64,000 nt of DNA from Bacillota bacterium (lineage in GTDB: Bacteria > Bacillota > Clostridia > Christensenellales > UMGS416): assembly GCA_023398815.1 (NCBI GenBank), contig JAEWRW010000010.1:2316-66315 (forward strand). The letters are read 5' to 3'. A program made the position numbers and the translations under genes. This document shows, piece by piece, positions 1,234-52,805 of the stretch; within the stretch, counting starts at the first letter, position 1; the number at the start of each line of letters is the position of its first letter. The notes below the pieces were generated by a model. That model did no database searches. It saw only the letters and a program-made list of their open reading frames with translations, and was not told where the DNA came from.

Positions 1234-1302
1234 CTGGGCTGTGCCGCTGTGCTGGGTCTGATGGGCCCATGCCCCGCTGTCTGGCCAGCAATGGTAGCCT
1301 TT

Positions 1303-1569
1303 CGCGGCTGCCGCTGTGGCGACAGCCGCGATTCAAACAGCTTGTTCTCATTATGATCAGATCGGTCGCCGCACATGTCGCCGACCGATCACTAATTGCA
1401 GCCCTCATGCGGGTTTCTAAGGATACGTTGCGCCTGGGGGCGTTTTTTTCTGCTCGTGCTGACCCTGCTTTTCCTCCCACCGAATGAATCGGCGGGAGGT
1501 TCATCTCACTTTGCCCGTTCTGGGTTTGTAGACACTTTGAACGCCCTCCCTCGGGGGCGTTTTTTCTTT
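1303..1569 (+). repeat. R2 repeat copy 1 (about 270 nt, hairpin-rich, ends in an intrinsic terminator)
   Basis: About 80% identical by eye to 59866-60138. Contains hairpin GATCGGTCG-CCGCACATGTCGC-CGACCGATC (1360-1390) and hairpin CCTCCCACCG-AATGAAT-CGGCGGGAGG. Confidence 0.8.
1540..1569 (+). terminator. Rho-independent terminator at the 3' end of R2 copy 1
   Basis: Stem ACGCCC..GGGGCGT followed by TTTTTTCTTT. Confidence 0.6.
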
Positions 1570-5132: not shown

Positions 5133-5560
5133 GTGTGGTCCTCCTAGCTGTGGTTGGCATTGAGTTCGCCGCAGGGCGGGGTGTTTCCTGCCAATGGCGC
5201 ACCGCTAGCCCAGCAAGCACACCGTGCTCGCAGCGAGGGAAGACTTCTTGTTACGAGTGGATTTTAGCCCCTGTCTCGCATGTCGCTGAGAGGTCATTCT
5301 ACTACTTTGCCAGTGCGAGCAATCACGAGAACGCGCTGCGGCGGGAGGGGGGTGCGCGTTACGGCGAGAAGCATTGTGATGGGGTGCTGGCGGGAACTCA
5401 CTTGTCTTTCCACACTAAGGAGGGCTTGCTAAGGGGATGCTTCATTGGCGTCTCACCCTCGTTCTCCTCAGGCGCGTTGAGAGGTCTTGCGATGGCAATC
5501 GACGTGACATAGCCAACTCGCAGTTTCGCCTTGTGCGCCGCTCCGGCTATATGCGTGTTG

Positions 5561-23756: not shown

Positions 23757-24700
23757 CGGGCTTCGCTTTCGCGGCGGCTGCTTCGCAACCGCCGCGAGTC
23801 AGGAGAGCTCGTCACGAGTGAGTTGGGGCCAGCCACCGCGCATGTCGCTGGCGGGCTTTCGTCTGCGTTGGTCGTACTTTAATTTTACGGTGGAGACGCC
23901 GCTGCGGCGGGAGGGGTGCGTGCCACGGACGGACTGCGGCGTGCCGCTGCCGGGTAAACCGGCTACGCGGCTACCTTTTTGATGGGGCGCGCGGGGTTTT
24001 GGGCAGGAGACGCCGCCTACGGGACTTGCGCCGTCGGGCGCCTGGGCTGTGGCGGGAGGGGCCGAGTACCACGAACGGGCAGTTCCGTGCCGCTGGCGGA
24101 TAGACCACCTCGCGGCTGCGGGACATAGCTTACGAGACGGAAGTCGGTCGTACCGTCCCTTCGGGCGCGTTCGAGTTTCCCCCGGGTTGCATGGGCGAGC
24201 AATGCGCGAAGCACATGACCAGCCCGGACGGCTGGCGGCACTCGGCTGGCGACAACGGGCACGCAGGCACCCTCTTCCCAACCCTCCCCCAAACTGGGGG
24301 AGGGCGGCGAGGCCGTGGGCACACTCCCTGCGTGTATACCAATCATATGGATTGCAAGGCGGAAGTCGGTCGTACCGTCCTCCGGGCGCGTTCGAGTTTC
24401 CCCCTGGCGACCGGTGGCACTTGGCTGGCGACAACGGGCGGGATGTTTGAGCCTTTCCGTTGCGGAGCAAAAGGAAAGGCGAGTTACCGCCCTCTGGTAC
24501 TCACCTTTGTGCCGGTCATCAGGTCTTGGAAACTCGTCCGCTCGAGCACGCCGGATGCGTGCTCATCCGTTTCGGGCCGTGAGGGCGACATTCGTGTCGC
24601 CCTAGCGCCTGGATGGCGCGTAAGGCCCGAACGGGGGCGTTTTTGGGCACTTTTGCGCTTTCCAAAAGTGCCGCCCAGCGCAGCGCGTTTCCTAAAGCAT
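23757..24700 (+). repeat. Mosaic repeat copy C (H1, H2, M3, duplicated 46-nt segment, R3 core 24384-24690)
   Basis: Begins 4 nt after the stop codon with CTTCGCTTTCGCGGCGG. Internal direct repeat GGAAGTCGGTCGTACCGTCC..GGGCGCGTTCGAGTTTCCCCC at 24139-24184 and 24361-24405. Confidence 0.85.
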
Positions 24701-25005
24701 GGGTCGGGATGCCGAACCAAGGGTGTTGCAGAGGAACAAACGAAATGCGCGACCAGTTAAGCTCCTTGGCCCGCGCCAGCGTCCTGTTAACCGCGACAAG
24801 AGCAGAATCGATTGTCTCTTGGTGGGAGCATGCCGCCATTGCCCAGGCAATGATGCCGCGAAGGCCCCGTTGCGCTGCAATCGCCGGTTTGGCCCATGAC
24901 GGAGACATTTGCCCTTTAGCATATTGCAAAATCGCTAGGGTTGTCATATCATAAACAATCATCTGCTATCACTACAAAAACACCCGTAACAGGGCGGAGG
25001 TTCCC

Positions 25006-25749: not shown

Positions 25750-28311
25750 CTATGGCTTGGCGCGAACGATGGCGCTGTAGGAGCTGTAGTTTGTGCCGGT
25801 GGACGCCCTGCGGAGCGCCCGCACCTTGTAGTAGTAGGTTTTAGTGCCGCTCAGGCCGGTGTTGGCGAAGCTGGTGGCGGTCGTCTCGCCCACCCGGGTG
25901 TAGCTGCCGGATGAGGAGGAGGCACGGTACACCTGGTAGGCCGTTGCCCCTGTGACGGCGCTCCAGCGCACCGTCGCCTTGGTGGCGGCGCGCGATACCT
26001 TCACCCCGGCAGGGGCGGCGGGCGCGGGCTTGACGGCCACGGCGGCGGTTTGGGCGCTGTAGGTGCGCGTTCCGCTCACGGTGACCCAGGCGCGCACCTT
26101 GTAGTAATAGGTTTTGCTTTTGGTGAGACCCGTGTTGGTGTAGCTGGTGCCGGTGGTGTCGGCCAGCTTGGTGTAGCTGCCGGTCTTGCTGGTGGCGCGG
26201 TACACCCGGTAGCCCGTCGCGCCTTTCACGGCGCTCCAGCTCACCTTCACCTTGGTGGCGGAGGTGTGCCCCGCCTTCACCCCGGTGGGGGCGGTTGGCT
26301 TGGGCGCGGCTGACACGGCGGAGGACTTGCTGCTATAGACCTTGGTGCCGTTGATGGTGGTGCCGTTGATGGTGGCGTAGGCCCGCACCTGGTAGCGGTA
26401 AGTTCTGCCCGTCGTGAGGCCCCGGTCGGTGTAGGTCAGCGTTGACCCGCCCGACACCGATGTTATCTTGGTGAATGTGCTGGAGGAACCGGTGGCGCGG
26501 TAGATGACATAGCCGGTGGCGGCGGACGACCGGCTCCACGTGAGCTTGATGCGGTCGCTGCCCGCGCTGGTTGCCGCCACACCCTTGGGGGTGGGGAGCT
26601 TCGCGATGACCTTGACCTCAATGCTGGCCTTCACCTTGCCATCGGCCGAGAGGGCGGTGAGCGTCTCCGACCGGGAGGAGCCCAGCTTCACCGCGGTGAT
26701 GGTGCCGTCGTCCATCACGCTCAGGCCGTAGTCGTCGCTGCGCCACCGCACCGTCGTGCGCGCGCCGGCGGGCAGCGCGGTGGCGGTCACCTTGCCCGAT
26801 TGCCCCTCCACCAGCGTTAAGCTGGTCGGGCTGATCTTGAGGCCGGTGAGCGCTGGCTCCTGCACGGTGGCCCCCACCTTCAGGCGGTGGATGGTCAGGG
26901 TGGCGGTGGCGTTGCTGGTTGTCCAGTAGAGGTATCCACCGCGAAGCACCGGCTGCTCAAAGGCCGGCAGGGCAGCGGAGCCGGTCAGCTTCAGCGCCTT
27001 CTGCACGGTGTTGCCTTTGGCGTCCACAATCATGCACCAGGTGGTGAAGGAATCCTCGTAGTCGTCGGCATTGTGCTTCTCCCACAGCAGCAGCACGTTG
27101 CCGTTGGTCAGGCCCACGGCTTTGGCGTTGTCGGCGTAATAGGGGGCGGCGTAGGAGGTCAGCCACTTCACCCCGTGGTCCGTCGTTCCAGGGTCCAGTA
27201 AGAATTCGTTGTCCGACCCGGTGGGTCGGGTGCCGGTGGCCACACGGTCGGCGGTGGCAAGCTGCTGGCAGGTCGTGTCAGCCCAGTCAAAGTCCTTGTC
27301 AAAGACCTGCAGGAACAGATCCCGTGGGTCAAAGTGGCCGCCATCGTGGTTGGCGGGCGCGGTGGCCAGAGAGAGCTTGCGCTCCGACGTGGCGGCCAGA
27401 ACAAAGCCCGCCGAAACCTCGGTGACGCTGCCCAGGCGGGCGTAGGTCTCGTTGTAGCCATAGGCCCGGTTGGCCCCCTCGCGGAAGTGGAACGGAATCA
27501 TCATCTTCATGGTTGCGCCGTCGCTGCTGACGCGGGAGATGTTGAACCCCCGGTTGTGGGCATCGCCGTGGTCGGCGAACAGGAACCCGTTGGAGACGGC
27601 GACCACCTGCTGGTCGAAGGAGTGGCTGGTGTACGGCTCCTGGTAATTAAGGCGCGTCATGTCTGAGGTTTTCACCCACACCACATGGTTGGACTGGTGG
27701 CCGCTGTACATTTCCCGCGCGTAGGTACACACCAGGGTGCCATTCTTCACGATAGCGCTGCAGTTGCCCGCGTCAAAGGGGTACCTCGTACCCCAATCGA
27801 GGTCGTCGGGGGAGGTATCGCCCAGCTCCCACCCCTTGAAGCTGATGGTTTTGAGGAGCTTGCCGTTAAGGTCGTACTTGCCCACGCGCAGCACCGTGGC
27901 GGTGCCCGTGCCGGCGTCGTCGCCGTCACCCCAGATGAGATAAACGTACGTACCGTCAGTGCAGGCGCCGCCCAGCATGGGCAGGCTTTTGGCGATGGTC
28001 GCCTTGTATTCCGGCTGCATCTGGGTATTGAAGCGAACCAGATGCACCTTCCAATCGGTGCTGCCGCACCCGGCGTAGACCACGGTGTAGCGCCCCTGCC
28101 CATCAAAGAACGCTGAAATGGGCGAGCAGCTGCCCAACCACTGCGACCAGGCCGGCGAAGGGTCTCGCACGGGTTCGCCGGCGGCAAATGTCCAGGTGTC
28201 GTGGGCGGCTACGGTGGTGGTGTCGGCGGCCAGCGCGGCCGACGGCCACGCCAGCGTCAGCGCCAGCAACAGCGCCGAAGCCCACGCGAGGGGTGAGGTG
28301 CGACGAGCCAT
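25750..28311 (-). CDS. Secreted surface protein: N-terminal unknown (beta-rich) domain, Big_2-like Ig domain, C-terminal FN3 array
   Basis: 853 aa with signal peptide ..WPSAALAAD. Big_2-like segment LKISPTSLTLVEGQSGKVTATALPAGA. Three FN3 units with GYRVYRATSKTGSYTKL..SKTYYYKVRAW. Confidence 0.75.
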   Translation of the reverse strand: MARRTSPLAWASALLLALTLAWPSAALAADTTTVAAHDTWTFAAGEPVRDPSPAWSQWLGSCSPISAFFDGQGRYTVVYAGCGSTDWKVHLVRFNTQMQPEYKATIAKSLPMLGGACTDGTYVYLIWGDGDDAGTGTATVLRVGKYDLNGKLLKTISFKGWELGDTSPDDLDWGTRYPFDAGNCSAIVKNGTLVCTYAREMYSGHQSNHVVWVKTSDMTRLNYQEPYTSHSFDQQVVAVSNGFLFADHGDAHNRGFNISRVSSDGATMKMMIPFHFREGANRAYGYNETYARLGSVTEVSAGFVLAATSERKLSLATAPANHDGGHFDPRDLFLQVFDKDFDWADTTCQQLATADRVATGTRPTGSDNEFLLDPGTTDHGVKWLTSYAAPYYADNAKAVGLTNGNVLLLWEKHNADDYEDSFTTWCMIVDAKGNTVQKALKLTGSAALPAFEQPVLRGGYLYWTTSNATATLTIHRLKVGATVQEPALTGLKISPTSLTLVEGQSGKVTATALPAGARTTVRWRSDDYGLSVMDDGTITAVKLGSSRSETLTALSADGKVKASIEVKVIAKLPTPKGVAATSAGSDRIKLTWSRSSAATGYVIYRATGSSSTFTKITSVSGGSTLTYTDRGLTTGRTYRYQVRAYATINGTTINGTKVYSSKSSAVSAAPKPTAPTGVKAGHTSATKVKVSWSAVKGATGYRVYRATSKTGSYTKLADTTGTSYTNTGLTKSKTYYYKVRAWVTVSGTRTYSAQTAAVAVKPAPAAPAGVKVSRAATKATVRWSAVTGATAYQVYRASSSSGSYTRVGETTATSFANTGLSGTKTYYYKVRALRRASTGTNYSSYSAIVRAKP

Positions 28312-31363: not shown

Positions 31364-33409
31364 ATGAACGAAGCCGAATTGTTGGAGAAAAATATCAAAG
31401 AGCTGCAGCAGATGGCCCGGGAGCGGGGCATTGCCTCGGTGAGCGGAATGCGCAAGCAGGCGCTGGTGGATGCGCTGCTGGTGGCCGAGCCCGCCGCCCG
31501 GCCCGAGCCCCCACGCCGGGGTCGCCCGCCGCGGCAGGCAGCGCCCGTCCAGGCGGTGGCTGACGAGCCCCGGCCCTCGCAGGCGGATGCCGCCCCGGTT
31601 GAGGCACCCGCCCCGCAGGCGGCCGCGTCTGCCCAGGATGGTGAGCCGGCCCCGCGCCCCGCGCGGGAGAGCCGACCGCCGCGCCAGCAGGGCGATGGCC
31701 AGGGTGAGCCCGTTGCCGCCGCAGAGCCCGCGTCCCGCCCCCAGCCCGCACCGGTGGAGCCCACGGCTGCCGCGCCGGTGGCCCAGCCCACGCAGGCCGC
31801 CCCGCCCGCGCCCATTGCTCCCCGCGCTGACCGCCCCGGCTATGTCGCCCGTCGGCGGGAGAACCCCCGCGATGGCGCGGCCCCGGCGGACAACCGCCCT
31901 CAGCAGCAGCAACCCCGCCAGGGCTATGCCTTCAAGCCCCGGGAGAACCGCAACCAGCCCTTTGCCCCATCCGGCAACGGCCAGCAGGCCCCCGGCCGCC
32001 CCAACAACCGCAATGGCTATGGCCCGACCAACGGCCAGCAAGGCTCCAACCGTGGCGTGGCACCGGCCAATGGCAATGGCTTCCAGCCCCAGGCCAATGG
32101 CGGCGGGTTCCCCAATGGCAACGGTGCCCAGGGCGGCAACGGCTTCCAGCCCGAGGACGCCAACCGCAACCGCCGCCCCAACCGGGAGAATCGGCCCGAG
32201 GGCTATTACAACAATGAGCTGGGCACGGCCAATCCTGCCGTCCCCGACCTGCTGAACAGTGCCGACTGCGGCGAGGCCGAGGGCATTCTGGACTTGCAGC
32301 CCGACGGCTACGGCTTCCTGCGCGCCATGAGCGTGGAGCAGAAGGACGTGTATGTCTCCATCGCGCAGATTCGCCGCTTCAGCCTGCGCCAGGGCGACCA
32401 TGTGCGCGGCAAGACCCGCCCCGAGCGGGAGAACGAGCGCTATCTCGCCATGCTCTACATCACCTCCATCAACGGCGAAGCGCCCGAGGCCGCCGGCCAG
32501 CGCAAGCACTTCGATTCGCTCACGCCCATCTTCCCCGATGAGCGCCTGACGCTGGAGCGCAAGGACGCGCCGGAAGATTTCGCCATCCGCTTGATTGACC
32601 TGGTGTCGCCCATCGGCAAGGGGCAGCGCGGCCTCATCGTGTCGCCGCCCAAGGCCGGCAAGACGACGCTCTTAAAAAAGATTGCCAACTCCATCACCGC
32701 CAACAGCCCCGACGTCAAGCTCTTCATCCTTTTGATTGACGAGCGGCCCGAGGAAGTCACCGACATCCAGCGCTCCACGGCGGCGGAGGTCATCTACTCC
32801 ACCTTTGACGAGCGGCCCGAGAACCACTGCCGCGTGGCCGAGTCGCTCATCGAGCGGGCCAAGCGCCTGGTGGAGCTGGGGCAGGACGTCGTCATCCTGC
32901 TCGATTCCATCACCCGCCTCTCCCGCGCCTACAACATCACGGTGCCGCCTTCGGGGCGGTCGCTGTCGGGCGGCTTGGACCCGGGCGCGCTCTACAAGCC
33001 CAAGCGGTTTTTCGGCGCGGCCCGCAACATTGAGGAGCAGGGCTCACTCACCATCATCGCCACGGCGCTCGTCGATACCGGCAGCCGTATGGACGACATG
33101 ATCTACGAGGAGTTCAAGGGCACCGGCAACATGGAGATTCACCTCGACCGCAGCCTGCAGGAGCGCCGCGTCTTCCCGGCTCTCGATCTCTATCGCTCTG
33201 GCACCCGGCGGGAGGAAAAGCTCTTGAGCCCCAAGGAGATGGAGGGCATCTGGGCGGTGCGCAAGCTCCTCTCCGGCAAGCAGGACAACGCCACCGAGCT
33301 CCTCATCGACATGATGGCCCGCACCCAGAATAACGTGGAGTTCCTCACCCGCGTCAGCGAGTGGCTCAAGCTCATGGAGAAGCAGGGGTATCAGATGGTC
33401 AACAAGTGA
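31364..33409 (+). CDS. rho: Transcription termination factor Rho with a roughly 280-aa low-complexity N-terminal insertion
   Basis: The Rho N-terminal helix bundle is MNEAELLEKNIKELQQMARERGI. The RNA-binding and ATPase core has GLIVSPPKAGKTTLL and VVILLDSITRLSRAYN. RBS GAAGGAAGG. Confidence 0.95.
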   Translation: MNEAELLEKNIKELQQMARERGIASVSGMRKQALVDALLVAEPAARPEPPRRGRPPRQAAPVQAVADEPRPSQADAAPVEAPAPQAAASAQDGEPAPRPARESRPPRQQGDGQGEPVAAAEPASRPQPAPVEPTAAAPVAQPTQAAPPAPIAPRADRPGYVARRRENPRDGAAPADNRPQQQQPRQGYAFKPRENRNQPFAPSGNGQQAPGRPNNRNGYGPTNGQQGSNRGVAPANGNGFQPQANGGGFPNGNGAQGGNGFQPEDANRNRRPNRENRPEGYYNNELGTANPAVPDLLNSADCGEAEGILDLQPDGYGFLRAMSVEQKDVYVSIAQIRRFSLRQGDHVRGKTRPERENERYLAMLYITSINGEAPEAAGQRKHFDSLTPIFPDERLTLERKDAPEDFAIRLIDLVSPIGKGQRGLIVSPPKAGKTTLLKKIANSITANSPDVKLFILLIDERPEEVTDIQRSTAAEVIYSTFDERPENHCRVAESLIERAKRLVELGQDVVILLDSITRLSRAYNITVPPSGRSLSGGLDPGALYKPKRFFGAARNIEEQGSLTIIATALVDTGSRMDDMIYEEFKGTGNMEIHLDRSLQERRVFPALDLYRSGTRREEKLLSPKEMEGIWAVRKLLSGKQDNATELLIDMMARTQNNVEFLTRVSEWLKLMEKQGYQMVNK

Positions 33410-34010
33410 CGCTTCGCTTGCGCTTCGCTTTCGCGGCGACCGCTTCGCGATCGCCGCGAGTTAGGTGAGCTCGTTCATAGGTTTAGGTGCCCCTTGACGC
33501 GCATGTCGTCAAGGGGCTGCTATTTGTGTTGGTCGTGCGGGGTTTCTACGAGGGAGACGCCGCCTGCGGCGAGGGGTATGCGCCACGAGAGGACCGCTTC
33601 GTGCTGCTGCCGGATAAACCGGCGACGCGGCTGCGGGACTGTGCTTGCTGAAACAGGGGGCCAAAGAGGTGCCAGACTGTTTGGGTTTCCGTCGTTCTTC
33701 CTTCGTTCTCTCCGGGGCGCGTTGCAAACTTCCTAGGTTGCATAGGCGAGCAGCAACCTGTAGGGTTGCGGCCAGCCCCCTGGCGACCGGCGGCAGGAAG
33801 CTAGTGACAACGGGCGGGATGTTTGAGCCTTTCCGCTGCGGAGCAGAAGGAAAGGCGAGTTACCGCCGTTGCCTCTCAAGCCTCGCGCCGGCCGTCAGGT
33901 CTTTGGAAGTTTGCCCGCGCCCTAGGCGTTTTTGGGCACTTTTGGCGCCATCCAAAAGTGCCGCCTACGGGCCTTATGCCGCATCATGCGACTGGTTCGA
34001 CGCCAGCGTC
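33410..34010 (+). repeat. Mosaic repeat copy D (H1, H2 33489-33517, M3, R3 core 33714-33985)
   Basis: Starts at the first base after the rho stop codon with CGCTTCGCTTGCGCTTCGCTTTCGCGGCGACCGCTTCGCGATCGCCGCGAG. Confidence 0.9.
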
Positions 34011-34288
34011 GCACTCACGGCCCTCTGCCTTGTGCCTCCCGGACGCTTGGGCCAGCGCAGCTCGTTTCCCTCGTGACAGTCATCAGATGCAGAAACACCC
34101 CCCGCCCGCACGATGCGGGCGAGATGCCGGAAAGGCGCGAAGCAATGCGATGGGGCAGCGCGGCAACTGGAAATCGGTACGGCGGTCTCAAATTTAGGAC
34201 TAAGAGCCCGCTTGCTTCTCGCAACCGGCGTATGGTTCCTCCTTGCTTGCCCCAAAAAATGTCCTTGACGCAAACCGCTTTGGCGAAT

Positions 34289-34600
34289 TTTTCCACACTT
34301 ACGGTTAGGTGGTCTAGACCACACAAATCGGCGCAATTCCGTAGGGGGAGGCAACGTGAACAGCGGTATGGCGGAGCACGGTTGAGTGTGGTTATCGACA
34401 GGGCACCTGTGAAGAACAAAGATGTTTTTTTCCACAGTCTGTGGACAATGCTGTGGGAATCAAAGCTTTTTCGCAGAAAATTGCACACAATCCACGGCAA
34501 TGTCTTGGAGAAGAGCCGAATGGCTGTCCCTCTGTGCACAGGGGAAGGCAGGCGAACGGGCATTTGCTTTGTTCACAGAGCTGTGGACAGCTGTGGATAA
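34289..34600. promoter_or_regulatory. DnaA-box cluster (oriC-like or DnaA-titration region)
   Basis: Perfect box TGTGGATAA at 34592-34600. One-mismatch boxes at 34289-34297 and 34428-34436 (TTTTCCACA), 34392-34400 (TTATCGACA) and 34440-34448 (TGTGGACAA). Two-mismatch boxes at 34569-34577 and 34582-34590. Confidence 0.6.
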
Positions 34601-34724
34601 CCTTGCCGACAATGCCGCAGTCATCGCCATGCGCCTCGCTGGAGGGGGTTCGCATAAGTGGTGGAACACGAAGGTAAGCCGATCGGCCCCGCTAGGGATT
34701 GGAAGCCCCTGGGGGGACACCCTC

Positions 34725-34767
34725 TTGACAAGAGCCCAGGGGTGTTATAAAGTTAGCGCATGCTAAC
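34725..34767 (+). promoter_or_regulatory. Promoter (TTGACA, extended -10 TGTTATAAA) with adjacent inverted repeat GTTAGC-N4-GCTAAC
   Basis: TTGACA at 34725-34730, TATAAA at 34746-34751 preceded by TGT, and the palindrome at 34752-34767. This lies upstream of the DUF3793 remnant and flavodoxin. Confidence 0.45.
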
Positions 34768-34825
34768 AATTGTCACGTACAAGAGTAAGAAATATCTAAC
34801 AGGATAGAGCAATGAACGACAACCT

Positions 34826-35096
34826 GTGCTCGACCGCCTGCAAACCCGCTGCCAAGGTGACTTCCCCCACGAAATCGACGTCTTCCTGGGTTACCCCTGT
34901 GAGGACGTGCGCGGCTTCATCCGCCACGGCGGGCAGGGGTACAAGCTCTGCGGCTACTGGAAGGTTTACGGCGACCCCCGAGAGGGCACGGGAAATCTTT
35001 GGCCGCATGGATGCGGTGCGACGCCGGGCGGTCCAACTGTTGTCAAGTTCTCTGCCGCTGTCAACGGCGGTGGAGCTCATAGAAAGGGGTGCGTAA
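34826..35096 (+). pseudogene. DUF3793-like gene remnant (N-terminally truncated and frameshifted)
   Basis: FPHEIDVFLGYPCEDVRGFIRHGGQGYKLCGYWKVYGDP is in one frame and continues as ERAREIFGRMDAVRRRAVQLL in another. The shift is at the C5 run near 34972-34976. The N-terminal roughly 100 aa expected for the family are absent. Confidence 0.5.
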
Positions 35097-35097
35097 C

Positions 35098-35514
35098 ATG
35101 ACACTTACGATTGTATACTGGAGCGGAACCGGCAACACCGAAGCAATGGCCAACCTCGTTGCTGAGGGTGCCCAGGACGCCGGGTTGGCTGTGAACACCA
35201 AGTCCGTCGACCGGGCCACGGCTGACGACCTCACCGCTGATGTGCTGGCGCTGGGCTGCCCGGCCATGGGCGACGAGGTGCTGGAGGAAGGCGAGTTTGA
35301 GCCCTGGCTCGATACGGTGCTGCCCCAGCTTGCCGGGCGCAAGGTTGCGCTCTTCGGCTCCTACGACTGGGGCGACGGCCAGTGGATGCGCGACTGGACA
35401 AAGCGCATGACCGACGCCGGCGTGGTGCTGGCAGCGGAGAGCCTCATCGTGCACAACACCCCCGACGGCGACGATGCCGAGCGCTGCCGCGCCTTCGGGC
35501 GCTCGCTGGCCTGA
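35098..35514 (+). CDS. Short-chain flavodoxin
   Basis: MTLTIVYWSGTGNTEAMANLVAEGA is the FMN phosphate-binding loop. 138 aa. RBS GAAAGGGG. Confidence 0.9.
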   Translation: MTLTIVYWSGTGNTEAMANLVAEGAQDAGLAVNTKSVDRATADDLTADVLALGCPAMGDEVLEEGEFEPWLDTVLPQLAGRKVALFGSYDWGDGQWMRDWTKRMTDAGVVLAAESLIVHNTPDGDDAERCRAFGRSLA

Positions 35515-35689
35515 CACAACGACACCTGGACTCCTGTTTCACTACCCCTCCCCCTTACAGCAAGCGGGCCCGAACCAACGTTCCGGCCCGCTTGCCCATT
35601 CGCGGCAGGAGGGTGCGCAGACGGGAAGGCGTTTGAGCAAGGGCTTTCAACTCTTTGGAACCTGTTCCAGCCCGCATAGGTTGTGGCCA

Positions 35690-36016
35690 GCCCCTTGCAG
35701 CCGTAGTGGCAGAAACCAGCCTGTCCGTACCACTCCTTCCCCCGCGTCAGCGCGTCTCCCCCGCGCCACCCAAGACTCCGCACACCCCACGAATACAGCA
35801 ACGGCGTGGCGGTTCATCCGCCCGCGGCAGCACTCGCCGGGTTAGAGGCACGATCCTCCTTTCCGCGTGAGCGGTGTCTCCCTCATAAACCCGGCCACGA
35901 GCTAAGTAAAATGAAGGCCCGCCAGCGACATGCGCGGTGGCGGGCCTTGGTATCATTTTGACGAGTGATCCAACTCGCGGCTGTCGCGTCAGCGGCAGGC
36001 GCGAACGTGCGTAGCG
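35690..36016 (-). repeat. Mosaic repeat, short copy abutting the uraA stop codon (H1, H2 35916-35946, M3)
   Basis: The minus strand reads CGCTACGCACGTTCGCGCC.. directly after the TAG stop. The H2 loop is CCGCGCATGTCGC. Confidence 0.8.
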
Positions 36017-37345
36017 CTATTTTTCTTCCGCCGCGTCCACGGCAGCGACGGCCTCTTCGGTGGCGTCGTCGCGGTCGTTGGTCAGCTTTAAGAGGTCGAA
36101 CACATAGAACAGCAGGCTCAGCAGGATGGCCACGATGGCGGCCAGCACCATGCCCTTGAGGGACACCGAGCCCAGCGTGATCGTCACGCCCGAGAGACCG
36201 GTGATGAACACGATGGCGGTCAGCACCAGGTTGCGGCTCTTGGAGTAGTCAATCTGGCTTTCCACCATCAGGCGGATACCGGAGGCGGCGATCATGCCAT
36301 AGAGCAGGAAGGACACGCCGCCGATGACCGGGCCGGGGATGAGCTGGATGAGGGTGGACACCTTGCCGCAGAAGGCGATGAGGGCGGAGATGACCGCCGC
36401 GCCGCCGATGACGCGCACGCTGTACACGCGGGTGATGGCCATGACGCCGATGTTCTCGCCATAGGTCGTGGTCGGCACCGAGCCCACCAGGCCCGAGAGC
36501 GAGGTGGAGAAGAAGTCAGCGAACAGCGAGCGGTGCAGGCCGGGGTCCTTCAGCAGGTCGCGGCCTACGATCTTGGAGGTGACGAGCTGGTGGCCGATGT
36601 GCTCGGTGATGACCACGAGCACCGCCGGCAGGATCGTCAGGATGGCGCCGGCCTCAAACCGCGGGAACTGGAAATTGGGCAGCTGGAACCACGCGGCCTC
36701 GGCCACCTTGCTGAAATCCACAAGCCCGTAAAAGAGGGACACCACATAACCCGTAACGATGGCGATGAGGATCGGGATGACCGAGAAGAACTTGCGGAAG
36801 CAGACCGAGCCCACGACCGCAACGCCCAGCGTCACCAGGAAGACGACCAGGTTGGCCGGCAGGATGGCGGGGTTGTTGGCCGTGATGAGCAGGTTGGCGT
36901 TGCCGTCGCCCACGGCGACACTGGCGAGCTCCAGGCCGATGAGCGCGACCACCGGGCCCATGGCTGCCGGGGGCAGCACCACATCGATCCACCGGATGCC
37001 TACAAACTTGATGAGCAGGGCAAAGAGCATGCCCACGATGCCCACTACCACAAACGCGCCCAGCGCCAGCGGGTAGTTGCCGGAGAAGTTATCGCCCAGC
37101 ACCACAAACACCGGGGACAGGAAAGCGAAGCTGGAACCGAGGTAAGCCGGGGCCTTGCCCTTGGTAATGAGGATGAACAGCAGCGTGGCGATGCCGTTCA
37201 TCAGCAGTATAACTGCGGGGTCGGCGTGGAACAGGATCGGCACCAGGACGGACGCGCCAAACATGGCAAACATGTGCTGCAGGCTCAGCGGCGCCCAGAG
37301 GGACAGGGGTACCTTGTCTTCGACCTGAATGATCTTGCGCGGCAA
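36017..37345 (-). CDS. uraA: Uracil permease (NCS2 family)
   Basis: LSLQHMFAMFGASVLVPILF and ITKGKAPAYLGSSFAFLSP match the UraA/PyrP pattern. About 12 TM segments. Start taken as TTG 37345, 8 nt after GGAGG; an alternative ATG is at 37360. Confidence 0.8.
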   Translation of the reverse strand: MPRKIIQVEDKVPLSLWAPLSLQHMFAMFGASVLVPILFHADPAVILLMNGIATLLFILITKGKAPAYLGSSFAFLSPVFVVLGDNFSGNYPLALGAFVVVGIVGMLFALLIKFVGIRWIDVVLPPAAMGPVVALIGLELASVAVGDGNANLLITANNPAILPANLVVFLVTLGVAVVGSVCFRKFFSVIPILIAIVTGYVVSLFYGLVDFSKVAEAAWFQLPNFQFPRFEAGAILTILPAVLVVITEHIGHQLVTSKIVGRDLLKDPGLHRSLFADFFSTSLSGLVGSVPTTTYGENIGVMAITRVYSVRVIGGAAVISALIAFCGKVSTLIQLIPGPVIGGVSFLLYGMIAASGIRLMVESQIDYSKSRNLVLTAIVFITGLSGVTITLGSVSLKGMVLAAIVAILLSLLFYVFDLLKLTNDRDDATEEAVAAVDAAEEK

Positions 37346-37519
37346 AATTCCCACCTCCATCGATTTATGCACACACACGTTGTGCGCATACACATTGTTG
37401 GAAAGTATAGCACAGTGGGATCATTCCGTCACTAACGAAATTTTATTTTTGGCTCTGATTTTGAGGGATTTGACGGCGTTTTAGGGAATCGGCGAGAAAG
37501 AGCAACACGAACGTTCGCA

Positions 37520-38193
37520 CTATATGCCGAACAATGGACGGATGATGGGGCATACCGCCCAAATGTCCTGCACGAGAATGCTGCGGGGCCCGCCACAGGC
37601 CCGTTTGAGGGGCCCGCAAAGCCCCGTTTCTGCCGCCTTCCCTGTGCGGCGAACGGCTCTGCCAGAGCAGGGGGGACGTCGCCGCGGAGGCCATGGAACA
37701 AATGAATTAGCAAGGGGACTTTGCCCCTGTGAACCCACGATGGCTTTCGTTGGACGTGCGCTATCCTCATGCAGCCGCCGGGCGGTTTATTCGCCCATCG
37801 CAACGCTTCGCGCCTTCCCGTCACCTCGCCCCGCATCGTGCGGGTTGGGTGCACCCACGGTTGCACCCCGGTGCCGTCGGCCTTAGGCGCATCCTGCGCC
37901 TTGGGTTGCTCGCGCCGCTCTCAAGCGATTCTGCCGAATCGCTCTGCCGCGACGCGGGGCCAGTGGCCCAAGGCACACCGCATCATGTCCGTGGCACTCA
38001 ACCCTTCCGCGTGAGCGACGTTTCCCCCGGAAAACCCAGCACGACCTACGCAAACGAACGCCCCCTGACGACCTGTACGTCAGGGGGCGAGGCAGCACCT
38101 GTGACGAGCTCTCCTGGGTCACCTTTGACGCAAAGCGGCAAAGGTGACCCAACTCGCGGCGGTCGCGCCAGCGGCCGCCGCGAACGCGTAGCG
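37520..38193 (-). repeat. Mosaic repeat copy abutting the NIPSNAP stop codon (H1, diverged H2 38059-38089, M3, further hairpins)
   Basis: The minus strand reads CGCTACGCGTTCGCGGCGGCCGC.. directly after the TAA stop. The distal boundary is uncertain. Confidence 0.7.
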
Positions 38194-38529
38194 TTAGCGC
38201 AGCGCCCACTCCGGCTGCACATAGGGCACGCGGGTCATGAAGAAGTTCTCCACCTTTGCCACGATGGGTCCGCCGTCAGCGTGGGAAGCGTCGAATGCCG
38301 CCCGCCAGCGCGGGTCAGCCTCAAAGGACGCGAAGGCGGCGTCGCGGGCCGCGCGGTCGGGGAAGGAGCAGACGTAGTAGATCCTCTCCGCGCCGTCGGC
38401 ATCCTCGTAAAAGTCGCACACGTGGATGCCGTGCTCGGCAAAGAGGCCCAGCGTGACCTCGCGGAAGCGCTTGTGGATGGCGGGCAGCCGGCCGGGGTGC
38501 ATGTGGTAGACGCGCAGTTCGTAGAGCAT
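38194..38529 (-). CDS. NIPSNAP family protein
   Basis: 111 aa. MLYELRVYHMHPGRLPAIHKRFREVTLGLFAEHGI is typical NIPSNAP. RBS AAAGGAGGG. Confidence 0.8.
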   Translation of the reverse strand: MLYELRVYHMHPGRLPAIHKRFREVTLGLFAEHGIHVCDFYEDADGAERIYYVCSFPDRAARDAAFASFEADPRWRAAFDASHADGGPIVAKVENFFMTRVPYVQPEWALR

Positions 38530-38775
38530 GGGGAGCCCTCCTTTCTGGTATATAGTTAGTATATAGGAAGTTGGGATGGCCGTCATCGGCTGGGCCGGGG
38601 TGGCTATACACATGGCTGCTGGGGGGGCCGAGGTTGACTCGGGCGCGGGTGGGCTGCGGTATCCCGGGGAGGAAGCACCGGTGATTGCCGACCAAGCCTT
38701 TGGCGTTGTTCTGTTTCACACCGCCTCGAAAACTGGTATAATAGAACCAATCACACGAGCAAATGAGGAATGACC

Positions 38776-39876
38776 ATGAAAATCTCCTGCGAGTGCGCCC
38801 AACTGGCCGCCGCCGTCGGTACTGTCACCAAGGCCCTGCCGGGCCGCACCACCATGCCCGCGCTGGAGGGCGTGCACATCGCCGCCCACGGCAGCACCGT
38901 TACCCTCACCTGCACCGACCTGCGGCTGGGCATTGCCACCGTGCTGCCCGCCACCGTGGAGGAGGAGGGTGAGGCCGTTCTGCCCGGCAAGCTCTTCTCG
39001 GAGATGGCGCGCAAGCTGCCGGATGGCACCGTGCACATCGCCGTGGAGGGCACCACCGCCCAGATCAGCGGGCGGGGCACCCGCACCCGCCTGCAGGTGA
39101 TGGACAGCGCCGAGTTCCCGGCCCTGGCCCAGGTGGAGGACGCCACCGGCGTGCTGCTGCCTGCCGAGACCCTGCGCGGGCTCATTCACCGCACGGTGTT
39201 TGCCGCCGCCACCGATGAGAGCCGCCCCATCCTGACCGGCGTGCTGGTGGAGTTCCTGCCCGGTGTTTGCCGCTTTGTGGCGCTGGACGGGTTCCGCCTG
39301 GCCATCTGCAACGCGCCCTACAACGGCGAGGCCGGCGGCCTCAAGGCCGTGGTGCCCGCCACCGCTCTCACGCGCTTGGCAAGCCTGCTGGACGACGAGG
39401 AGCCCGTCGCGCTGGAGATTGGGCCCACCCACCTGGGCGCGACGCTGGGCGGCACCCGTGTCGTGACCCGCCTGCTGGAGGGTGAGTTCCTCCGCTACGA
39501 GCAAATTCTCCCCACCGAGTGGTTCACCCGCATCACCGTGGCCCGGGCGGGCCTGGCCACGGCGCTCGACCGTGCCTCCATGTTGGCGCGGGAGGGCCGC
39601 AGCAACCTGGTGCGCCTGAAGATTGCCGAGGATACGCTGGTGGTCACCTCCAACAGCGAAGCCGGCGACGTCTATGAGGAAGTGCCGGTGAGCCGCGAGG
39701 GCCGCGACCTCGAGATCGCGTTCAACTCCCGATTCCTCACCGATGTGCTGCGCAACCTGGAAAGCGAGGAGCTGACCATGCAGTTCACCACCTCGGTCAA
39801 CTCCGCCGTGCTGCACAGCGCCGAGGGCGACGACTTCACCTATCTGGTGCTGCCGGTAAGGGCATTCCCGCAGTGA
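38776..39876 (+). CDS. dnaN: DNA polymerase III beta sliding clamp
   Basis: 366 aa. MKISCECAQLAAAVGTVTKALPGRTTMPALEGVHIAA..LTCTDLRLGI shows the typical three-domain DnaN pattern. Extended -10 TGGTATAAT at about 38737-38745. No dnaA or recF is adjacent. Confidence 0.9.
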   Translation: MKISCECAQLAAAVGTVTKALPGRTTMPALEGVHIAAHGSTVTLTCTDLRLGIATVLPATVEEEGEAVLPGKLFSEMARKLPDGTVHIAVEGTTAQISGRGTRTRLQVMDSAEFPALAQVEDATGVLLPAETLRGLIHRTVFAAATDESRPILTGVLVEFLPGVCRFVALDGFRLAICNAPYNGEAGGLKAVVPATALTRLASLLDDEEPVALEIGPTHLGATLGGTRVVTRLLEGEFLRYEQILPTEWFTRITVARAGLATALDRASMLAREGRSNLVRLKIAEDTLVVTSNSEAGDVYEEVPVSREGRDLEIAFNSRFLTDVLRNLESEELTMQFTTSVNSAVLHSAEGDDFTYLVLPVRAFPQ

Positions 39877-40345
39877 TCGGTCACATCGGGCCCAGCCCGA
39901 TGTGACCAACCAATGGCGCTTACGAGTGCTTTGCCTTTGGCAAAGCACTCGTCGCGGAGCGACGCCAAGCGCCGTTGGAAGGGCAGTGGGACGACTGCCA
40001 CACCCGGTGCGAGCTCCCGGCGTCGCACTCGCTGCCGCAAGGCGGCGCTAAGCCGTGCGCGCCCCCAGGTGCGCACAACCGTACAAGCTTACAGTGCTTT
40101 GCTCCGCAAAGCACTCGCCACGCAGTGGCGCAAGCGCCGTACGGAGGGGCAGCTGGAACAACAAGCTTAGATCGGCGCGAGCACCGGCGTCTCACTCCGT
40201 GCGCGCCCCCAGGTGCGCACAACCGTACAAGCTTATAGTGATCGGGTGCGCCGGGCTGGTCATGTGCTATGCGCGCCTGGTCGTGCGCTGTGCGCACTGC
40301 TCGGCCCTGCATCCTGGCTGCTCGCCCATGCGGCCCGAATCCCCT
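39877..40345 (+). repeat. Hairpin, two tandem 145-170-nt repeat units (39921-40089, 40090-40233), then X arm (40234-40345)
   Basis: 12-bp hairpin GGTCACATCGGG-CCCAG-CCCGATGTGACC at 39880-39909. The units share AGTGCTTTGC..GCAAAGCACT and GTGCGCGCCCCCAGGTGCGCACAACCGTACAAGCT. Confidence 0.85.
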
Positions 40346-40557
40346 TCGTTGCGCCCGAGCCAGAACAATCCTGCAACAAAGCCTTCGCCCCTTGCCGCAT
40401 CCCGATCCTAGAACGCGGCGGACGCGGGGAACCATTCTCTCGTCAATCCGACAATTTTGCGACCGCGCGTGGTTGTCGGATGCTTGTATGACCGTGTCGC
40501 ATGGTGTACAATCTAGGCTTGTTGGTGTCGAAAGAATCGAAGGAGTTATTTCATTCT

Positions 40558-42237
40558 ATGAAACCGCTTTCTCTGTCGGTCATTGTGCCGATTTATAACG
40601 TAGAGCCTTACCTGCAAGAATGCCTTGACAGCTTGCTGGCCCAAACCGCTGAAGATGTGGAATATCTGCTCATCAACGACGGTTCCAGTGATGCCTCCGG
40701 CCCCATGGCCGAGGCCTTCGCCCAGGCGCATCCCGAGCAATTTCGGTATTTTGAGAAGGAAAACGGAGGCCTGAGCGATGCGCGCAACTTTGGGTTGGAG
40801 CGTGTCCGGGGCGAATACGTGGGCTTTGTGGACAGCGACGACTTCCTGCATCCCTCCATGTTTGAGCTGATGCTCAATAAGGGACGGGAGAACGACGCTG
40901 ACGTCGTGGTCTGCCGCATCAACATCGTGGCGGGTAAGAAGACGCGCCGCATGGTGTTCTCCCACCTGGGGTCCTTTGGCCACAGTGTGGCGGAGGATCC
41001 CCGCGTGCTGCTGGCCAGCCGCTCCTACGCCTGCAACAAGATCTTCCGCACGGCAATCTTCCGCGACAACGACATCCGTTTCCCGGTGGGCAAGGCCTAT
41101 GAGGATTCGGCGATCATCTACAACACGCTTTATTACGCCAACCGCATCGATTTTGTCAATAGCCCGCTCTACAACTACCGGTTCCTGAGGCAGGGGTCCA
41201 TCACTGCCGCGGTGGATGAGCGTATGTTTGACATCTTCCACTCCTGCGATTGCATCGTGGAGTTTTACCGCAGCAAGGATATTGAGTCCCCCCGTCTGCC
41301 ACAGGTCATCGAGACGCTGTGCCGCAACCACATCCTGTACCGCTTCAACACCATGCTGCAGGGGGAGTACAGCCTGGAGTACATGCGGTTTTTCATGCGG
41401 GCCCACCAGTACCTGGACACCAACTTTCCCGGCTGGCGCAGGCGTTACAAACCGAAGTTGAAGAGGAGCGTCATGAACTTCGTGCGCAAATGGCCCTGGG
41501 CATTGTGGCTGTACCTGCACATTCCGGCGGGGGTGCGCCACAGGTATCACCGGTACAAGACCCAACGCAAGAACCTGGCTAAAAAGAGGCAGAAGACCCG
41601 GCAGGCTGAGGCGGTCAAGCGGGCGAAGAGCCAAGCTCTGCGCCGGGTTGGGTATTCTCTCTTTGAGCGGGTAGGCCAGGCCTTTGGTCCCTTGGGGTTG
41701 ACATACTTCGCAGACTTCGGCACGTTGCTCGGCTTCATCCGCGAAGGTGGCTTTATGAGCCACGATCTCGACCTGGATATTGGCGTCATCGCCAACGACA
41801 CGCCCATTGAAACCATCCGCGAGGCGCTGGACCAGGCCGGGTTCCACCTGTGGCGCAGCTACCTCTACGACGGCATGCCGGTGGAGGATTCGTTCTACTT
41901 CGTCACCGACGACAACGTCCGGCTGAAGTTTGACGTCAACTATTACCAGGTGACGGAGGAGCATAGCAAGGTCTGGCTCTTTTACTGGGTGCGCGGCTAC
42001 CAGTACGCCACCAAGTACGAGCGGCACATCGTGGAGATGACCTACTCGCCCATTCAGGGCACCACCACCCTGCGCCTGAAGGGCCACGACATTCCCATCC
42101 CGGTAAACGCGCGCACGCTGCTGGAAGAGAAGTATGGCCCCGGCTGGCGCAAGAAGGACAAGAACTGGATTTACTGGGAGTCGCCGGCGGCCACCAAGCT
42201 CAATCGCATTGGCATCTTTGAGGAATACAAGGTGTAA
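40558..42237 (+). CDS. Bifunctional GT2 glycosyltransferase + LicD-family phosphotransferase
   Basis: N-terminus LSVIVPIYNVEPYLQECLDSLLAQT..LLINDGSSD is GT2. C-terminus LTYFADFGTLLGFIREGGFMSHDLDLDIGV is LicD-like. Confidence 0.8.
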   Translation: MKPLSLSVIVPIYNVEPYLQECLDSLLAQTAEDVEYLLINDGSSDASGPMAEAFAQAHPEQFRYFEKENGGLSDARNFGLERVRGEYVGFVDSDDFLHPSMFELMLNKGRENDADVVVCRINIVAGKKTRRMVFSHLGSFGHSVAEDPRVLLASRSYACNKIFRTAIFRDNDIRFPVGKAYEDSAIIYNTLYYANRIDFVNSPLYNYRFLRQGSITAAVDERMFDIFHSCDCIVEFYRSKDIESPRLPQVIETLCRNHILYRFNTMLQGEYSLEYMRFFMRAHQYLDTNFPGWRRRYKPKLKRSVMNFVRKWPWALWLYLHIPAGVRHRYHRYKTQRKNLAKKRQKTRQAEAVKRAKSQALRRVGYSLFERVGQAFGPLGLTYFADFGTLLGFIREGGFMSHDLDLDIGVIANDTPIETIREALDQAGFHLWRSYLYDGMPVEDSFYFVTDDNVRLKFDVNYYQVTEEHSKVWLFYWVRGYQYATKYERHIVEMTYSPIQGTTTLRLKGHDIPIPVNARTLLEEKYGPGWRKKDKNWIYWESPAATKLNRIGIFEEYKV

Positions 42238-42560
42238 CGATCCGCTTCGCTTTCGCGTCCGCCGCTGATGCGGCGGACGCGAGGGAGATGAACTCGTCAA
42301 AACGATACCAAGGCCCGCCACCGCGCATGTCGCTGGCCGCTGGCCTCACCCTGCGGCAGACGATTCGTCAGAATCGTTGGGAGCAGGGTGAGCATTGCGG
42401 AGCAATGCGGTAGGCGGGTTTTCGTCTGTCCGGGTCGTGCTAGGCTCTGTCGGGGACGCCACTGCGGTGGGCAGGGGACGAGTGCCACGGACGTGCCAAG
42501 TGCTGCCGCTGCCGGATGAACCGGCTGGCGGCGGCCGTGGCGTAACGCTCGCCCCCTGTG
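42238..42560 (+). repeat. Mosaic repeat copy after GT2-LicD (H1, H2 42312-42345, M3)
   Basis: CCGCTTCGCTTTCGCGTCCGCCGC-TGAT-GCGGCGGACGCGAG begins 4 nt after the TAA stop. Confidence 0.8.
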
Positions 42561-44421: not shown

Positions 44422-44485
44422 ATTGCTCACAAACCTGAATGCCGACAACTCATCGTATGAGTTCATCGCGTTATTTATGTGGTTT

Positions 44486-44514
44486 AGTATATGACGGGTT
44501 GGCACGACTGTCAA
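44486..44514 (-). promoter_or_regulatory. Promoter of amtB-glnK
   Basis: The minus strand reads TTGACA-17 nt-TATACT. Confidence 0.6.
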
Positions 44515-45728: not shown

Positions 45729-46019
45729 CGCTGCGCCTGCGCTTCGCGTGTCGCGGCGACCGCTTTGCGATCGCCGCGAGTGGGAGGGGCTCGTTACGAG
45801 TGACTTTTTGCCGCGCGCCGCGCATGTCGCCGCGCGGCATCTGGCGTTGTTGGTCGTGCTGGGTTTCACGCAGGAAACGCCACTCACGTGGAAGGGGTGC
45901 GTGCTCCGTTCAGAGTGTTTCGTGCCGCCCGCGGATGAACCGCTTGGGCGGCTGCGGGGGACTGGGCACGCAGCAGAAGCTGGACACGCTGTCCATCGGG
46001 GCGCGGTCGAGGTTCCCCC
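45729..46019 (+). repeat. Mosaic repeat copy after the tocopherol-cyclase-like gene (H1, H2 45810-45838, M3)
   Basis: GCGCTTCGCGTGTCGCGGCGACCGCTTTGCGATCGCCGCGAG begins about 10 nt after the TGA stop. Confidence 0.8.
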
Positions 46020-52171: not shown

Positions 52172-52805
52172 GGCGGTACTTTTGGATGGCGCCAAAAGTA
52201 CCCAAAAGCGCCTAGGGCACGGACGGACTTCCAAGACCTGACCACCGGCACAAACATTGATGCAGCGGCGGGTAACTCGCATGAGTATTGCTAGGCAACA
52301 CTCATACTCAAACATCCCCGCCCGATCAGCGCCCGGATGGCGCAAGGCCGAGGGCCGTGAGTGCGACGCACAGCGTCGTACTAGCCGCAGGACGCGGCGT
52401 AAGGCCCGAGCGCTGTCACAAAACAAGAGCCGCCGATGGCCAGGGCTGGTCGCAACCCTGCGGGTTGCTGCTCGCCCATGCGACCTGGGGGAAGTCCGAA
52501 ACGCGCCCGGTGAGAACAGGAACGGAGCGCGATACGCCAAAGGGACAGGCGTCCCTTTGGAATCCCGCTACCGCAGTAACCAGAACGAGAGCCGCCCCCA
52601 GCAGCCGCGTCGCGGGTTTATCCCGCAGCGGCGCCACAATGCGTATTCGTGGTGCTAGGCCCCTCCCGCCCGTGGCGCGTTTCTCCGTGAATCCTGCACG
52701 AGCTGCAAAAAAGGAAGCCCCTTGACGACATGTGCGTCAAGGAGCGTCACCGAACACGCGAACGAATTCTTCAAACTCGCGGCCGTCGCGAAGCGGCGGA
52801 CGCGA
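52172..52805 (-). repeat. Mosaic repeat copy E, inverted, abutting the comB stop codon (H1, H2 52718-52744, M3, R3 core 52172-52508)
   Basis: The minus strand begins GTCGCGTCCGCCGCTTCGCGACGGCCGCGAG directly after the TAG stop. The R3 hairpin stems carry compensatory changes. Confidence 0.85.

Follow-up and report, generated by a model that had tools for sequence, protein, structure and literature searches.

Why should one loop sequence be kept on a series of unrelated hairpin stems? The question is raised by a 64,000-nt stretch of the genome of an uncultured member of the Bacillota (Clostridia; Christensenellales; GenBank assembly GCA_023398815.1, contig JAEWRW010000010.1, positions 2,316 to 66,315), hereafter called the window. 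The window is chromosomal, carrying rho, murA, dnaN, tilS, a [FeFe] hydrogenase gene and tRNA genes, and an initial annotation had noticed in it nine hairpins with a common loop, one of them at 33489–33517 behind rho. We found that the hairpins are real, but that they are not independent small elements, as they had been taken to be: each is the tip of one domain in a repeat of about 205 nt, here named family X, in which the hairpin first noticed is designated P2.

The loop motif CGCRCATGTCG has eight exact matches in the window, at 1370+, 23837+, 33498+, 35926−, 42322+, 45819+, 52726− and 59926+, against a mean of 0.22 in 100 dinucleotide-preserving shuffles (at most two per shuffle, and in none of them eight). 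A ninth P2 copy, at 38069−, has the diverged loop CGTACAGGTCG. All nine loops are flanked by inverted complementary arms of 9–12 bp. The five stems originally listed are correct, and at least seven variants are present once copies outside the window, on the same contig and in relatives, are included, namely GATCGGTCG, TATCGTTCG, TTATCGCTTG and G(G)CCCGCCA/GCCAGCCA, together with GC(C/T)CCTTGA, CGCCCCCTGA and GCCGCGCG. When one mismatch was allowed, five extra matches appeared in the window. One of these, at 5275, is part of a decayed copy of the repeat; the others (6573, 24741, 28507 and 45714), three of which lie inside likely genes, are taken to be chance matches since no repeat copy surrounds them.

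An alignment of 250 nt on each side showed that sequence is conserved on both sides of every loop. The core of the element measures 203–210 nt in every copy after removal of two private insertions, with a mean pairwise identity of about 58%. It starts with zero to two copies of the 8-mer CGCTNCGC, followed by P1, a GC-rich hairpin of 12–13 bp with the conserved apex C-CGC-nnn-GCG-A. A linker with GCUCGU separates P1 from P2, and P2 is followed by a U-rich stretch and UCGUGC. The central domain contains GGGUUU, GGAGACGCC, a short hairpin that covaries and a run rich in purines, and the element ends with a 3' hairpin (GCCGC-CCGG-AUGAA-CCGG-GCGGC) whose loop GAUGAAC is conserved. Seven of the window copies (23837, 33498, 35926, 38069, 42322, 45819 and 52726) belong to subfamily A and two (1370 and 59926) to subfamily B.

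In a 14-copy alignment, pairwise identity was 0.58 over the full element, 0.88 in the loop block and 0.50 in the stem arms, so that the loop is, as had been proposed, far better kept than the stems. The conserved block comprises 13 nt, (C/A)CGCRCATGTCG(C/T), rather than 11, its base being either mismatched (C-C) or paired (A-T); two invariant CG/CG pairs probably form within it, leaving a 7-nt loop, CRCAUGU. Covariation was counted on the same alignment. Standard pairs filled 88.5% of the cells, compared with 31–45% when the 3' partners were slid by 1–3 columns; 26 of the 49 pairs had changed on both sides, and the covariation score was reached by none of 500 shuffles. The P2 stem contributes nine variable pairs, each with 4–7 double-changed sequences, whereas the loop-proximal CG/CG pairs are invariant. 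The motifs GCUCG and CGUGC also pair, forming a helix that closes the P2 domain and switches cleanly to GCUUG/CAUGC in the B-type copies. Because of this further helix, P2 is the tip of an irregular hairpin of about 75 nt, and its T-rich tail sits in an internal loop. The apex of P1 is likewise a conserved loop on differing stems, and the same apex recurs on an unrelated stem in an extra hairpin, P1b, present in two copies (38117–38151 in the window and a copy beyond it, at 3958–4204 of L248; L-numbers denote fetched stretches, i.e. the contig extension, L248 and L298, identical contigs, and related genomes).

Four motifs, the P1 apex, GCUCGU, UCGUGC and the GAUGAAC loop, are as conserved as the loop of P2. 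Since the hairpins belong to one repeat with other motifs equally well kept, part of the loop conservation reflects shared ancestry. Nevertheless, the conserved loop, the compensatory stems and the non-random orientation described below make selection on both loop sequence and pairing a fair inference, and to this extent the claim that simple drift does not explain the hairpins stands. The copies in the window are as follows, with scores from a covariance model (CM) built from the P1 and P2 domain where available.

1300..1502 (+): subfamily B copy, 203 nt, behind the MarR gene 802–1233; 113 bits (CM); P2 at 1360–1390.
5206..5319 (+): decayed copy with loop CTCGCATGTCG and broken stems; nhmmer E = 2.5e-5; CM 16.2 bits.
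23767..23974 (+): copy of 208 nt, 10 nt past the stop of the PAS-GGDEF-HD gene 20175–23756; P2 at about 23827–23857.
23991..24124 (+): extra tandem 3' half (modB) only; nhmmer E = 2.9e-10; a similar tandem modB occurs in L070.
33429..33634 (+): copy of 206 nt behind rho; found by alignments; CM 107.7 bits.
33489..33517 (+): P2 hairpin of the rho copy, the one first annotated; stem GCCCCTTGA/TCAAGGGGC, loop block A-CGCGCATGTCG-T; defined by stem pairing; passes a crude terminator scan.
35798..36006 (−): copy of 209 nt, 10 nt past the stop of the permease gene 36017–37393 (−); P2 at 35916–35946.
37943..38185 (−): copy of 243 nt behind the NIPSNAP gene 38194–38613 (−); P2 at 38059–38089, loop CGTACAGGTCG.
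42251..42537 (+): copy of 287 nt, 13 nt past the stop of the GT2 gene 40501–42237; P2 from 42312.
45748..45955 (+): copy of 208 nt behind the ORF 44439–45728; P2 at 45810–45838, stem GCCGCGCG/CGCGCGGC.
52601..52805 (−): copy with P1 starting right after the TAG (52806–52808) of a ComB-like gene; P2 at 52716–52746.
59855..60062 (+): subfamily B copy, 208 nt, behind the ABC-2 permease gene 59011–59823; P2 at 59916–59945.

Several copies have features of their own. In the rho copy, two 8-mers (CGCTTCGC) occupy 33410–33428 directly after the stop codon (33407–33409), and the closing helix of the P2 domain joins GCTCG at 33470–33474 to CGTGC at 33534–33538. A canonical terminator follows the copy at 1300..1502, at about 1545–1575; the other B-type copy, at 59855..60062, has a hairpin P0 (GGCTGTCGAC/GTCGACAGCC) in front and a terminator behind. 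P1b in the copy at 37943..38185 carries the P1-type loop CCGCTTTGCG. In the 42322 copy, the 3' arm of P2 is split at 42338–42415 by a 78-nt insertion with two small hairpins, which is not repeated elsewhere in the window; positions 1–60 of L070 may hold a different insertion at the same point of P2. About 9 kb of contig on each side of the window contained three further copies (L248 3958–4204, L248 8928–9130 and L298 7723–7930), giving 12 copies in about 83 kb, or roughly one per 7 kb.

A coding function of family X is excluded by length differences of 1–2 nt, stops out of register and the compensatory stem changes. Rfam at gathering thresholds found two tRNAs and no family X match in the whole window, and at E ≤ 10 over 33300–38300 (5 kb, three copies) it returned chance matches and nothing credible. 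A pseudoknot between the loop and downstream sequence, or a kissing loop, would have only 4–5 possible pairs, which do not covary; RCAUGU is quasi-palindromic, but the variants CAGGU and AYAAC break the palindrome. A match to the 23S sarcin-ricin loop (ACGAGAGGACCG at 33498) is absent from the other copies and is therefore due to chance.

All 12 copies on the contig share the orientation of the ORF ending just upstream, including seven or eight between tandem genes and four opposite to the majority direction, and none lies between divergent genes. Random orientation relative to genes, which would have spoken against the original proposal, was thus not what we found, and the sense-strand position at first assigned to seven stop-anchored hairpins holds for all nine in the window. 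The sole antisense copy in the window is the decayed one at 5206..5319, which is antisense to both flanking genes. The loop lies 70–137 nt past the stop codon in the nine copies, a range near the 62–105 nt given earlier. With relatives counted, P1 starts 0–19 nt past the stop codon in 12 of 14 copies, and in two copies the stop codon falls between the two 8-mers. An ORF for a pyridoxal phosphate (PLP) enzyme of Cys/Met metabolism (L298, 7890–7960, about 2 kb past the window end; loop of the copy, CGCACAGGTCG) spans the 8-mer and the entire P1 and ends with TAG two bases after it, so that the repeat encodes a C-terminal extension of about 15 residues, as expected from insertion at the end of an ORF. 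All three stop codons, TGA, TAG and TAA, adjoin the copies similarly often; a SECIS or PYLIS element is rejected for this reason, an in-frame UGA not being the only one.

Cumulative GC skew rises monotonically across the window, while the orientation of the copies follows the neighbouring gene on both strands. As orientation tracks the gene with no reversal of skew, the constraint appears to be linked to transcription rather than to replication, which argues for an RNA-level or transcription-coupled process.

The rho locus suggests how a copy comes to lie where it does. Five related genomes were reached via Rho homologues, with about 85% identity in the Rho core and the murA-GT2-rho synteny kept. 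Family X is absent behind rho in all five, each of which has instead a canonical hairpin-plus-T-run terminator 25–45 nt past the rho stop, and the Rho C-terminus (QGYQ.xNK) is the same in the window and in the five relatives. Because the relatives have an intact C-terminus without the element, and the copy in the window begins at the base after TGA, this copy is, on sequence comparison, an insertion between the stop codon and the former downstream sequence.

True family members were found in another metagenome-assembled genome (MAG), Bacillota bacterium OH_CBB_43, at three loci (L013, L066 and L070), the only true relatives among the matches listed in a pattern scan of genome contigs, the rest being almost all due to chance. 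The copies in L066 and L070, where the upstream ORF is visible, start right after its stop codon, and the L013 copy, at a non-syntenic locus in a different genome, shares 88% identity with the 1370 copy. At about 7600–7925 of L013, this B-type copy lies between near-identical 25-nt hairpins, GGGCGGTCACAC(C)CCTGTGACCGCCC, with a T-run (opposite strand) after the outer one only; the arrangement, not seen at other copies, looks like a terminator duplicated at the insertion site. The covariance model also detected a copy of B-like type in L122, where P1 follows the TGA of an AraC gene directly. In a scan of metagenome contigs with the P1 and P2 pattern, none of 120 loci matched the element profiles, nor did any of 48 loci from a scan of viral contigs.

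The 5' halves of the 35926 and 42322 copies are 86% identical, and their 3' halves are clearly much more diverged. As the halves differ in divergence and extra 3' halves occur in tandem (23991–24124 and L070), family X copies are, judging from their sequences, mosaics.

The reading that we favour, with a probability of roughly 0.55, is that family X is an interspersed repeat that depends on structure, is not autonomous and survives only where it is transcribed together with a gene as its 3' untranslated region (UTR), its invariant loops serving as recognition sites for a partner and its stems being free to covary. It would have multiplied in an uncultured high-GC lineage of Bacillota, in which its copies occupy, in the sense orientation, the interval from stop codon to terminator behind many unrelated genes. 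Having no promoter of its own, it would be transcribed as the 3' UTR of the upstream gene, and its transcript would fold, as the covariation indicates, into P1, an irregular hairpin tipped by P2 and closed by GCUCG/CGUGC, a central domain and a 3' hairpin. A trans-acting factor, which may be an enzyme copying the element or a host RNA-binding protein, would read the apex of P1, the GAUGAAC loop and, in P2, the CRCAUGU loop seated on CG/CG pairs, while the stems would need only to pair and would drift through compensatory change and recombination between copies. The persistence of sense copies suggests that their structure is under selection. By analogy with repetitive extragenic palindromic (REP) sequences, a GC-rich P1 placed 0–19 nt past the stop and a U-tailed P2 of the A type should have side effects, shielding the 3' end of the mRNA and causing partial termination or pausing; they may also hinder terminating ribosomes. 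Recognition of the loop by a partner, as first proposed, is a reasonable hypothesis; no recombinase, RNase, RNA chaperone or terminator factor was identified as the partner with the sequence available.

Several observations weigh against the favoured reading. i) Pfam searches of the scanned ORFs and of the genes at the fetched loci revealed no transposase, reverse transcriptase or HUH protein in the 83 kb. ii) Terminal inverted repeats were not found, a comparison of the first 40 nt with the last 40 nt in reverse complement giving longest matches of 5–7 nt at inconsistent positions, nor were consistent target-site duplications, flanking direct repeats being matches of 4–7 nt at varying offsets only; the exact ends of the element are uncertain. 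iii) Wobble pairs point only weakly to an RNA-level structure of the sense strand: there are 43 G-U and 23 A-C pairs overall, mostly in weakly defined helices, P1 and P2, the two best-defined ones, holding 311 Watson-Crick, 6 G-U and 3 A-C pairs, and both strands fold better than shuffles (z = −2.5 for the sense and −3.4 for the antisense strand). iv) No presence/absence polymorphism was seen, contigs L249, L299 and L300 of the same organism being 99.9–100% identical. v) Diverged C-type copies at orthologous sites in two relatives (L122 6936–7049 (−) and L124 6949–7058 (−)), between an M20 peptidase gene and a Zn-ribbon/murA operon, have another P2 loop, CG-AYAAC-CG, and run antisense to the genes annotated beside them; a small conserved ORF lies upstream of them only in these two near-identical genomes and is therefore uninformative. 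Because of the C-type copies, the loop, said earlier to be retained, is by its sequence conserved across subfamilies A and B rather than across the whole of family X, and the orientation rule has at least one exception.

A bolder version of the favoured reading, in which family X is a self-propagating structured RNA (about 205 nt, with a fixed fold and a dedicated protein reading its invariant loops) whose copies are placed between the stop and terminator of expressed genes via an RNA or transcription-coupled single-strand intermediate, seems to us improbable. If true, such an RNA would represent a class of bacterial element targeting mRNA 3' ends, apart from REP/RAYT, MITEs (miniature inverted-repeat transposable elements) and group II introns.

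The strongest rival, which we regard as possible though clearly less probable, overlaps with the favoured reading and differs from it mainly in who benefits. According to it, family X is a 3' UTR module working for the host, in which P2 and its U-rich tail form a terminator, P1 and P2 act as exonuclease barriers, P1 tunes translation termination, and the loop binds a global RNA-binding protein or RNase. Such a module would account for the strict sense orientation, for P1 adjoining the stop codon in nearly all copies and for the fact that the decayed copy is the antisense one; moreover, the elements are found where transcription units end, and the downstream genes have promoter-like sites of their own. 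The evidence on termination itself is divided. The 10 nt after P2 contain 48% T in A-type copies, against 18% T window-wide, and two P2 hairpins (33489–33517 and 38059–38089) pass the crude terminator scan, but this covered five window copies in two regions, of which the other three do not pass. Interruptions break the U-tracts, and the B-type tail has only 28% T and is followed by a separate canonical terminator. The P2 tail, furthermore, belongs to an internal loop that a covarying helix closes, the proposed terminator is followed by a well-structured 3' half with about 120 nt of conserved structure, and relatives use ordinary terminators at the same loci. Partial termination or pausing at P2 is therefore plausible without being the whole story.

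A second rival, which appears unlikely, places the signal in DNA: P2 would be a single-stranded DNA hairpin for an HUH-type enzyme, in the style of REP/RAYT, IS200/IS605, IS91 or a rolling-circle origin, with the loop as the binding or nicking site. Rolling-circle replication origins have a conserved nonanucleotide in the loop, and the P2 loop is likewise kept on stems that vary freely and consist almost wholly of Watson-Crick pairs; such stems suit DNA hairpins as well as RNA hairpins. Family X is also high-copy and lineage-restricted, another small element has inserted in the P2 arm, and the L013 copy is flanked by a duplicated 25-nt hairpin. However, orientation tracks the gene on both strands in 64 kb with no GC-skew reversal and does not follow one replication strand, as that of single-stranded DNA transposons of the IS200/IS605 type does. 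The GTAG/CGTC tag at the hairpin foot and inverted REP pairs are missing, family X is ten times as long as a REP, with at least four covarying helices, and no Y1 or HUH gene was found in the 83 kb.

The weakest rival, that the copies are independent small-RNA genes with their own promoter and terminator (for example, sponging a protein via repeated loops), fits the conserved, covarying structure of fixed length and the recurrent GGA motifs (GGAUGAA in the 3' hairpin; centrally, AAGGAU or GGGAGAC), but is very improbable, as P1 lies 0–19 nt past the stop and sometimes inside the ORF, leaving a promoter no space, the sequence preceding the copies showed no promoter-like site, and strict co-orientation with the upstream gene is not expected of autonomous genes.

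Family X shares its intergenic regions with other repeats. Family Y occurs at 223–451, 18263–18524, 24383–24690 and 33776–34069 (+) and at 52155–52434 (−), downstream of family X at most sites. It contains a hairpin with the conserved loop GTTGCGGAGCA on covarying stems (CCTTTCC/GGAAAGG, TATGTGC/GCACATG and TATGAGT/ACTCATG), enclosed by GGGCGGGATGTTTGAG...CGAGTTACCGCCC, and therefore the pattern of a conserved loop on variable stems is not unique to family X. Families Z and W lie in the same regions, the order of modules varying by locus as in BIME-like mosaics. Family Z includes an inverted pair of about 60 nt around a Y copy, and family W has the form CTTAYGCCGCATC...hairpin...CTCACGG; the repeats of these two families were located at 3–66 versus 444–506 (inverted), at 39885–40337 versus 46019–46281, and at 5694–5782, 18411–18497, 33968–34047 and 52328–52408.

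Other features of the window may be mentioned briefly. Five DnaA-box-like 9-mers (TTATCCACA, at most one mismatch), including a perfect box at 34592–34600, are clustered at 34289–34600, about 4 kb from dnaN (38776–39876), in a non-coding stretch of about 1.4 kb that separates rho from a DUF3793 gene; the window has no dnaA gene, and cumulative GC skew does not turn there. The ORFs 24191–24760 (+; 189 aa) and 34015–34563 (−; 182 aa), genes of the public assembly without a Pfam match, lie entirely on repeats X, Y or W or on the DnaA-box region and are probably spurious calls. Diverged internal DNA repeats of 69–73% identity at 12437–12883 and 25817–26434, unrelated to family X, correspond to protein-domain repeats in or between fn3-domain surface-protein genes (9909–12947 (+) and 25750–28311 (−)). 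A tRNA-Gln/tRNA-Glu pair at 53705–53858 was found by both ARAGORN and Rfam, whereas a 100-nt tRNA-Val called by ARAGORN at 21071–21170, inside the PAS-GGDEF-HD gene, is without Rfam support and probably a false positive.

If the favoured reading is right, about 3% of the genome (extrapolated from 12 copies in 83 kb) would consist of one structured repeat, which would have taken the 3' ends of about a third of the transcription units in the stretch, replacing or preceding the ordinary terminators found in relatives at the same loci. Its copies would form a natural sequence set, with free stems and three fixed loop motifs, suited to a search for the partner and to the question of whether family X is a parasite, a domesticated 3' UTR module or both, and a very stable hairpin near the stop codon would be a test case for the coupling of translation termination to mRNA 3' structure outside the Proteobacteria. 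Together with families Y, Z and W, it would explain why intergenic regions in these MAGs are unusually long and 'empty' and why several ORFs were called spuriously.

Among known systems, family X most invites comparison with the REP, BIME and REPIN sequences of Proteobacteria, which are associated with the RAYT (TnpAREP) transposase. In two studies (PMC3116915; PMC8266576), the REP hairpin is described as maintained by compensatory change, recognition depending on structure plus a short conserved motif. Like family X, these sequences are high-copy extragenic hairpins forming mosaics with other repeat families, and REPs are often found in 3' UTRs near stop codons. Liang, Rudd and Deutscher reportedly found in 2015 that in E. 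coli a REP within about 15 nt of a stop codon causes ribosomes to stall and tmRNA tagging to follow. A REP, however, is a single imperfect palindrome of 20–40 nt, often in inverted pairs, with the motif GTAG or CGTC at its foot, whereas family X is about 205 nt long, has at least four helices, occurs as single copies and has its conserved bases in loops. No GTAG or CGTC is conserved beside P1, P2 or the 3' hairpin in the alignment, there are no inverted pairs of family X (reverse-strand matches of the covariance model cover only the palindromic P1), and no RAYT (Y1 HUH) gene lies in the 83 kb. Family X also differs in that all 12 copies counted on the contig are sense-oriented and in that its host belongs to a Bacillota lineage.

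Integron attC sites resemble family X in keeping structure while varying in sequence, in starting at or over the preceding stop codon and in sharing the orientation of the ORF. An attC identity is nevertheless rejected: there is no RYYYAAC/GTTRRRY core pair, a GTTRRRY-like string after P1 in some copies having no complementary RYYYAAC, and there is neither a same-direction cassette array nor an integrase, the neighbours being housekeeping genes such as rho on both strands. A classical MITE, i.e. a non-autonomous DDE transposon, is rejected likewise, as terminal inverted repeats were not found; nor, the exact ends of the element being uncertain, was a consistent target duplication seen. With intrinsic terminators P2 shares a GC-rich stem of 9–12 bp at the 3' end of a gene, followed in A-type copies by a T-rich stretch; it differs from them in its 13-nt sequence-conserved loop block, its interrupted T-tract and the roughly 120 nt of conserved structure after it.

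Intergenic repeats of 100–200 nt are known as ERIC/IRU in Enterobacteria, Correia/NEMIS in Neisseria, bcr1 in the Bacillus cereus group and RUP/BOX in pneumococcus. They are co-transcribed with their neighbours, form stable RNA folds, some with compensatory substitutions, and affect mRNA stability or termination; most take the form of a long imperfect palindrome or of a MITE bounded by terminal inverted repeats and short target duplications, and they occur in both orientations. Structured intergenic repeats are thus already known, and family X, in which neither such termini nor such duplications were found, differs from them in combining a multi-domain fold and invariant apical loops with a strict sense orientation and a position almost touching the stop codon of the gene that it follows.

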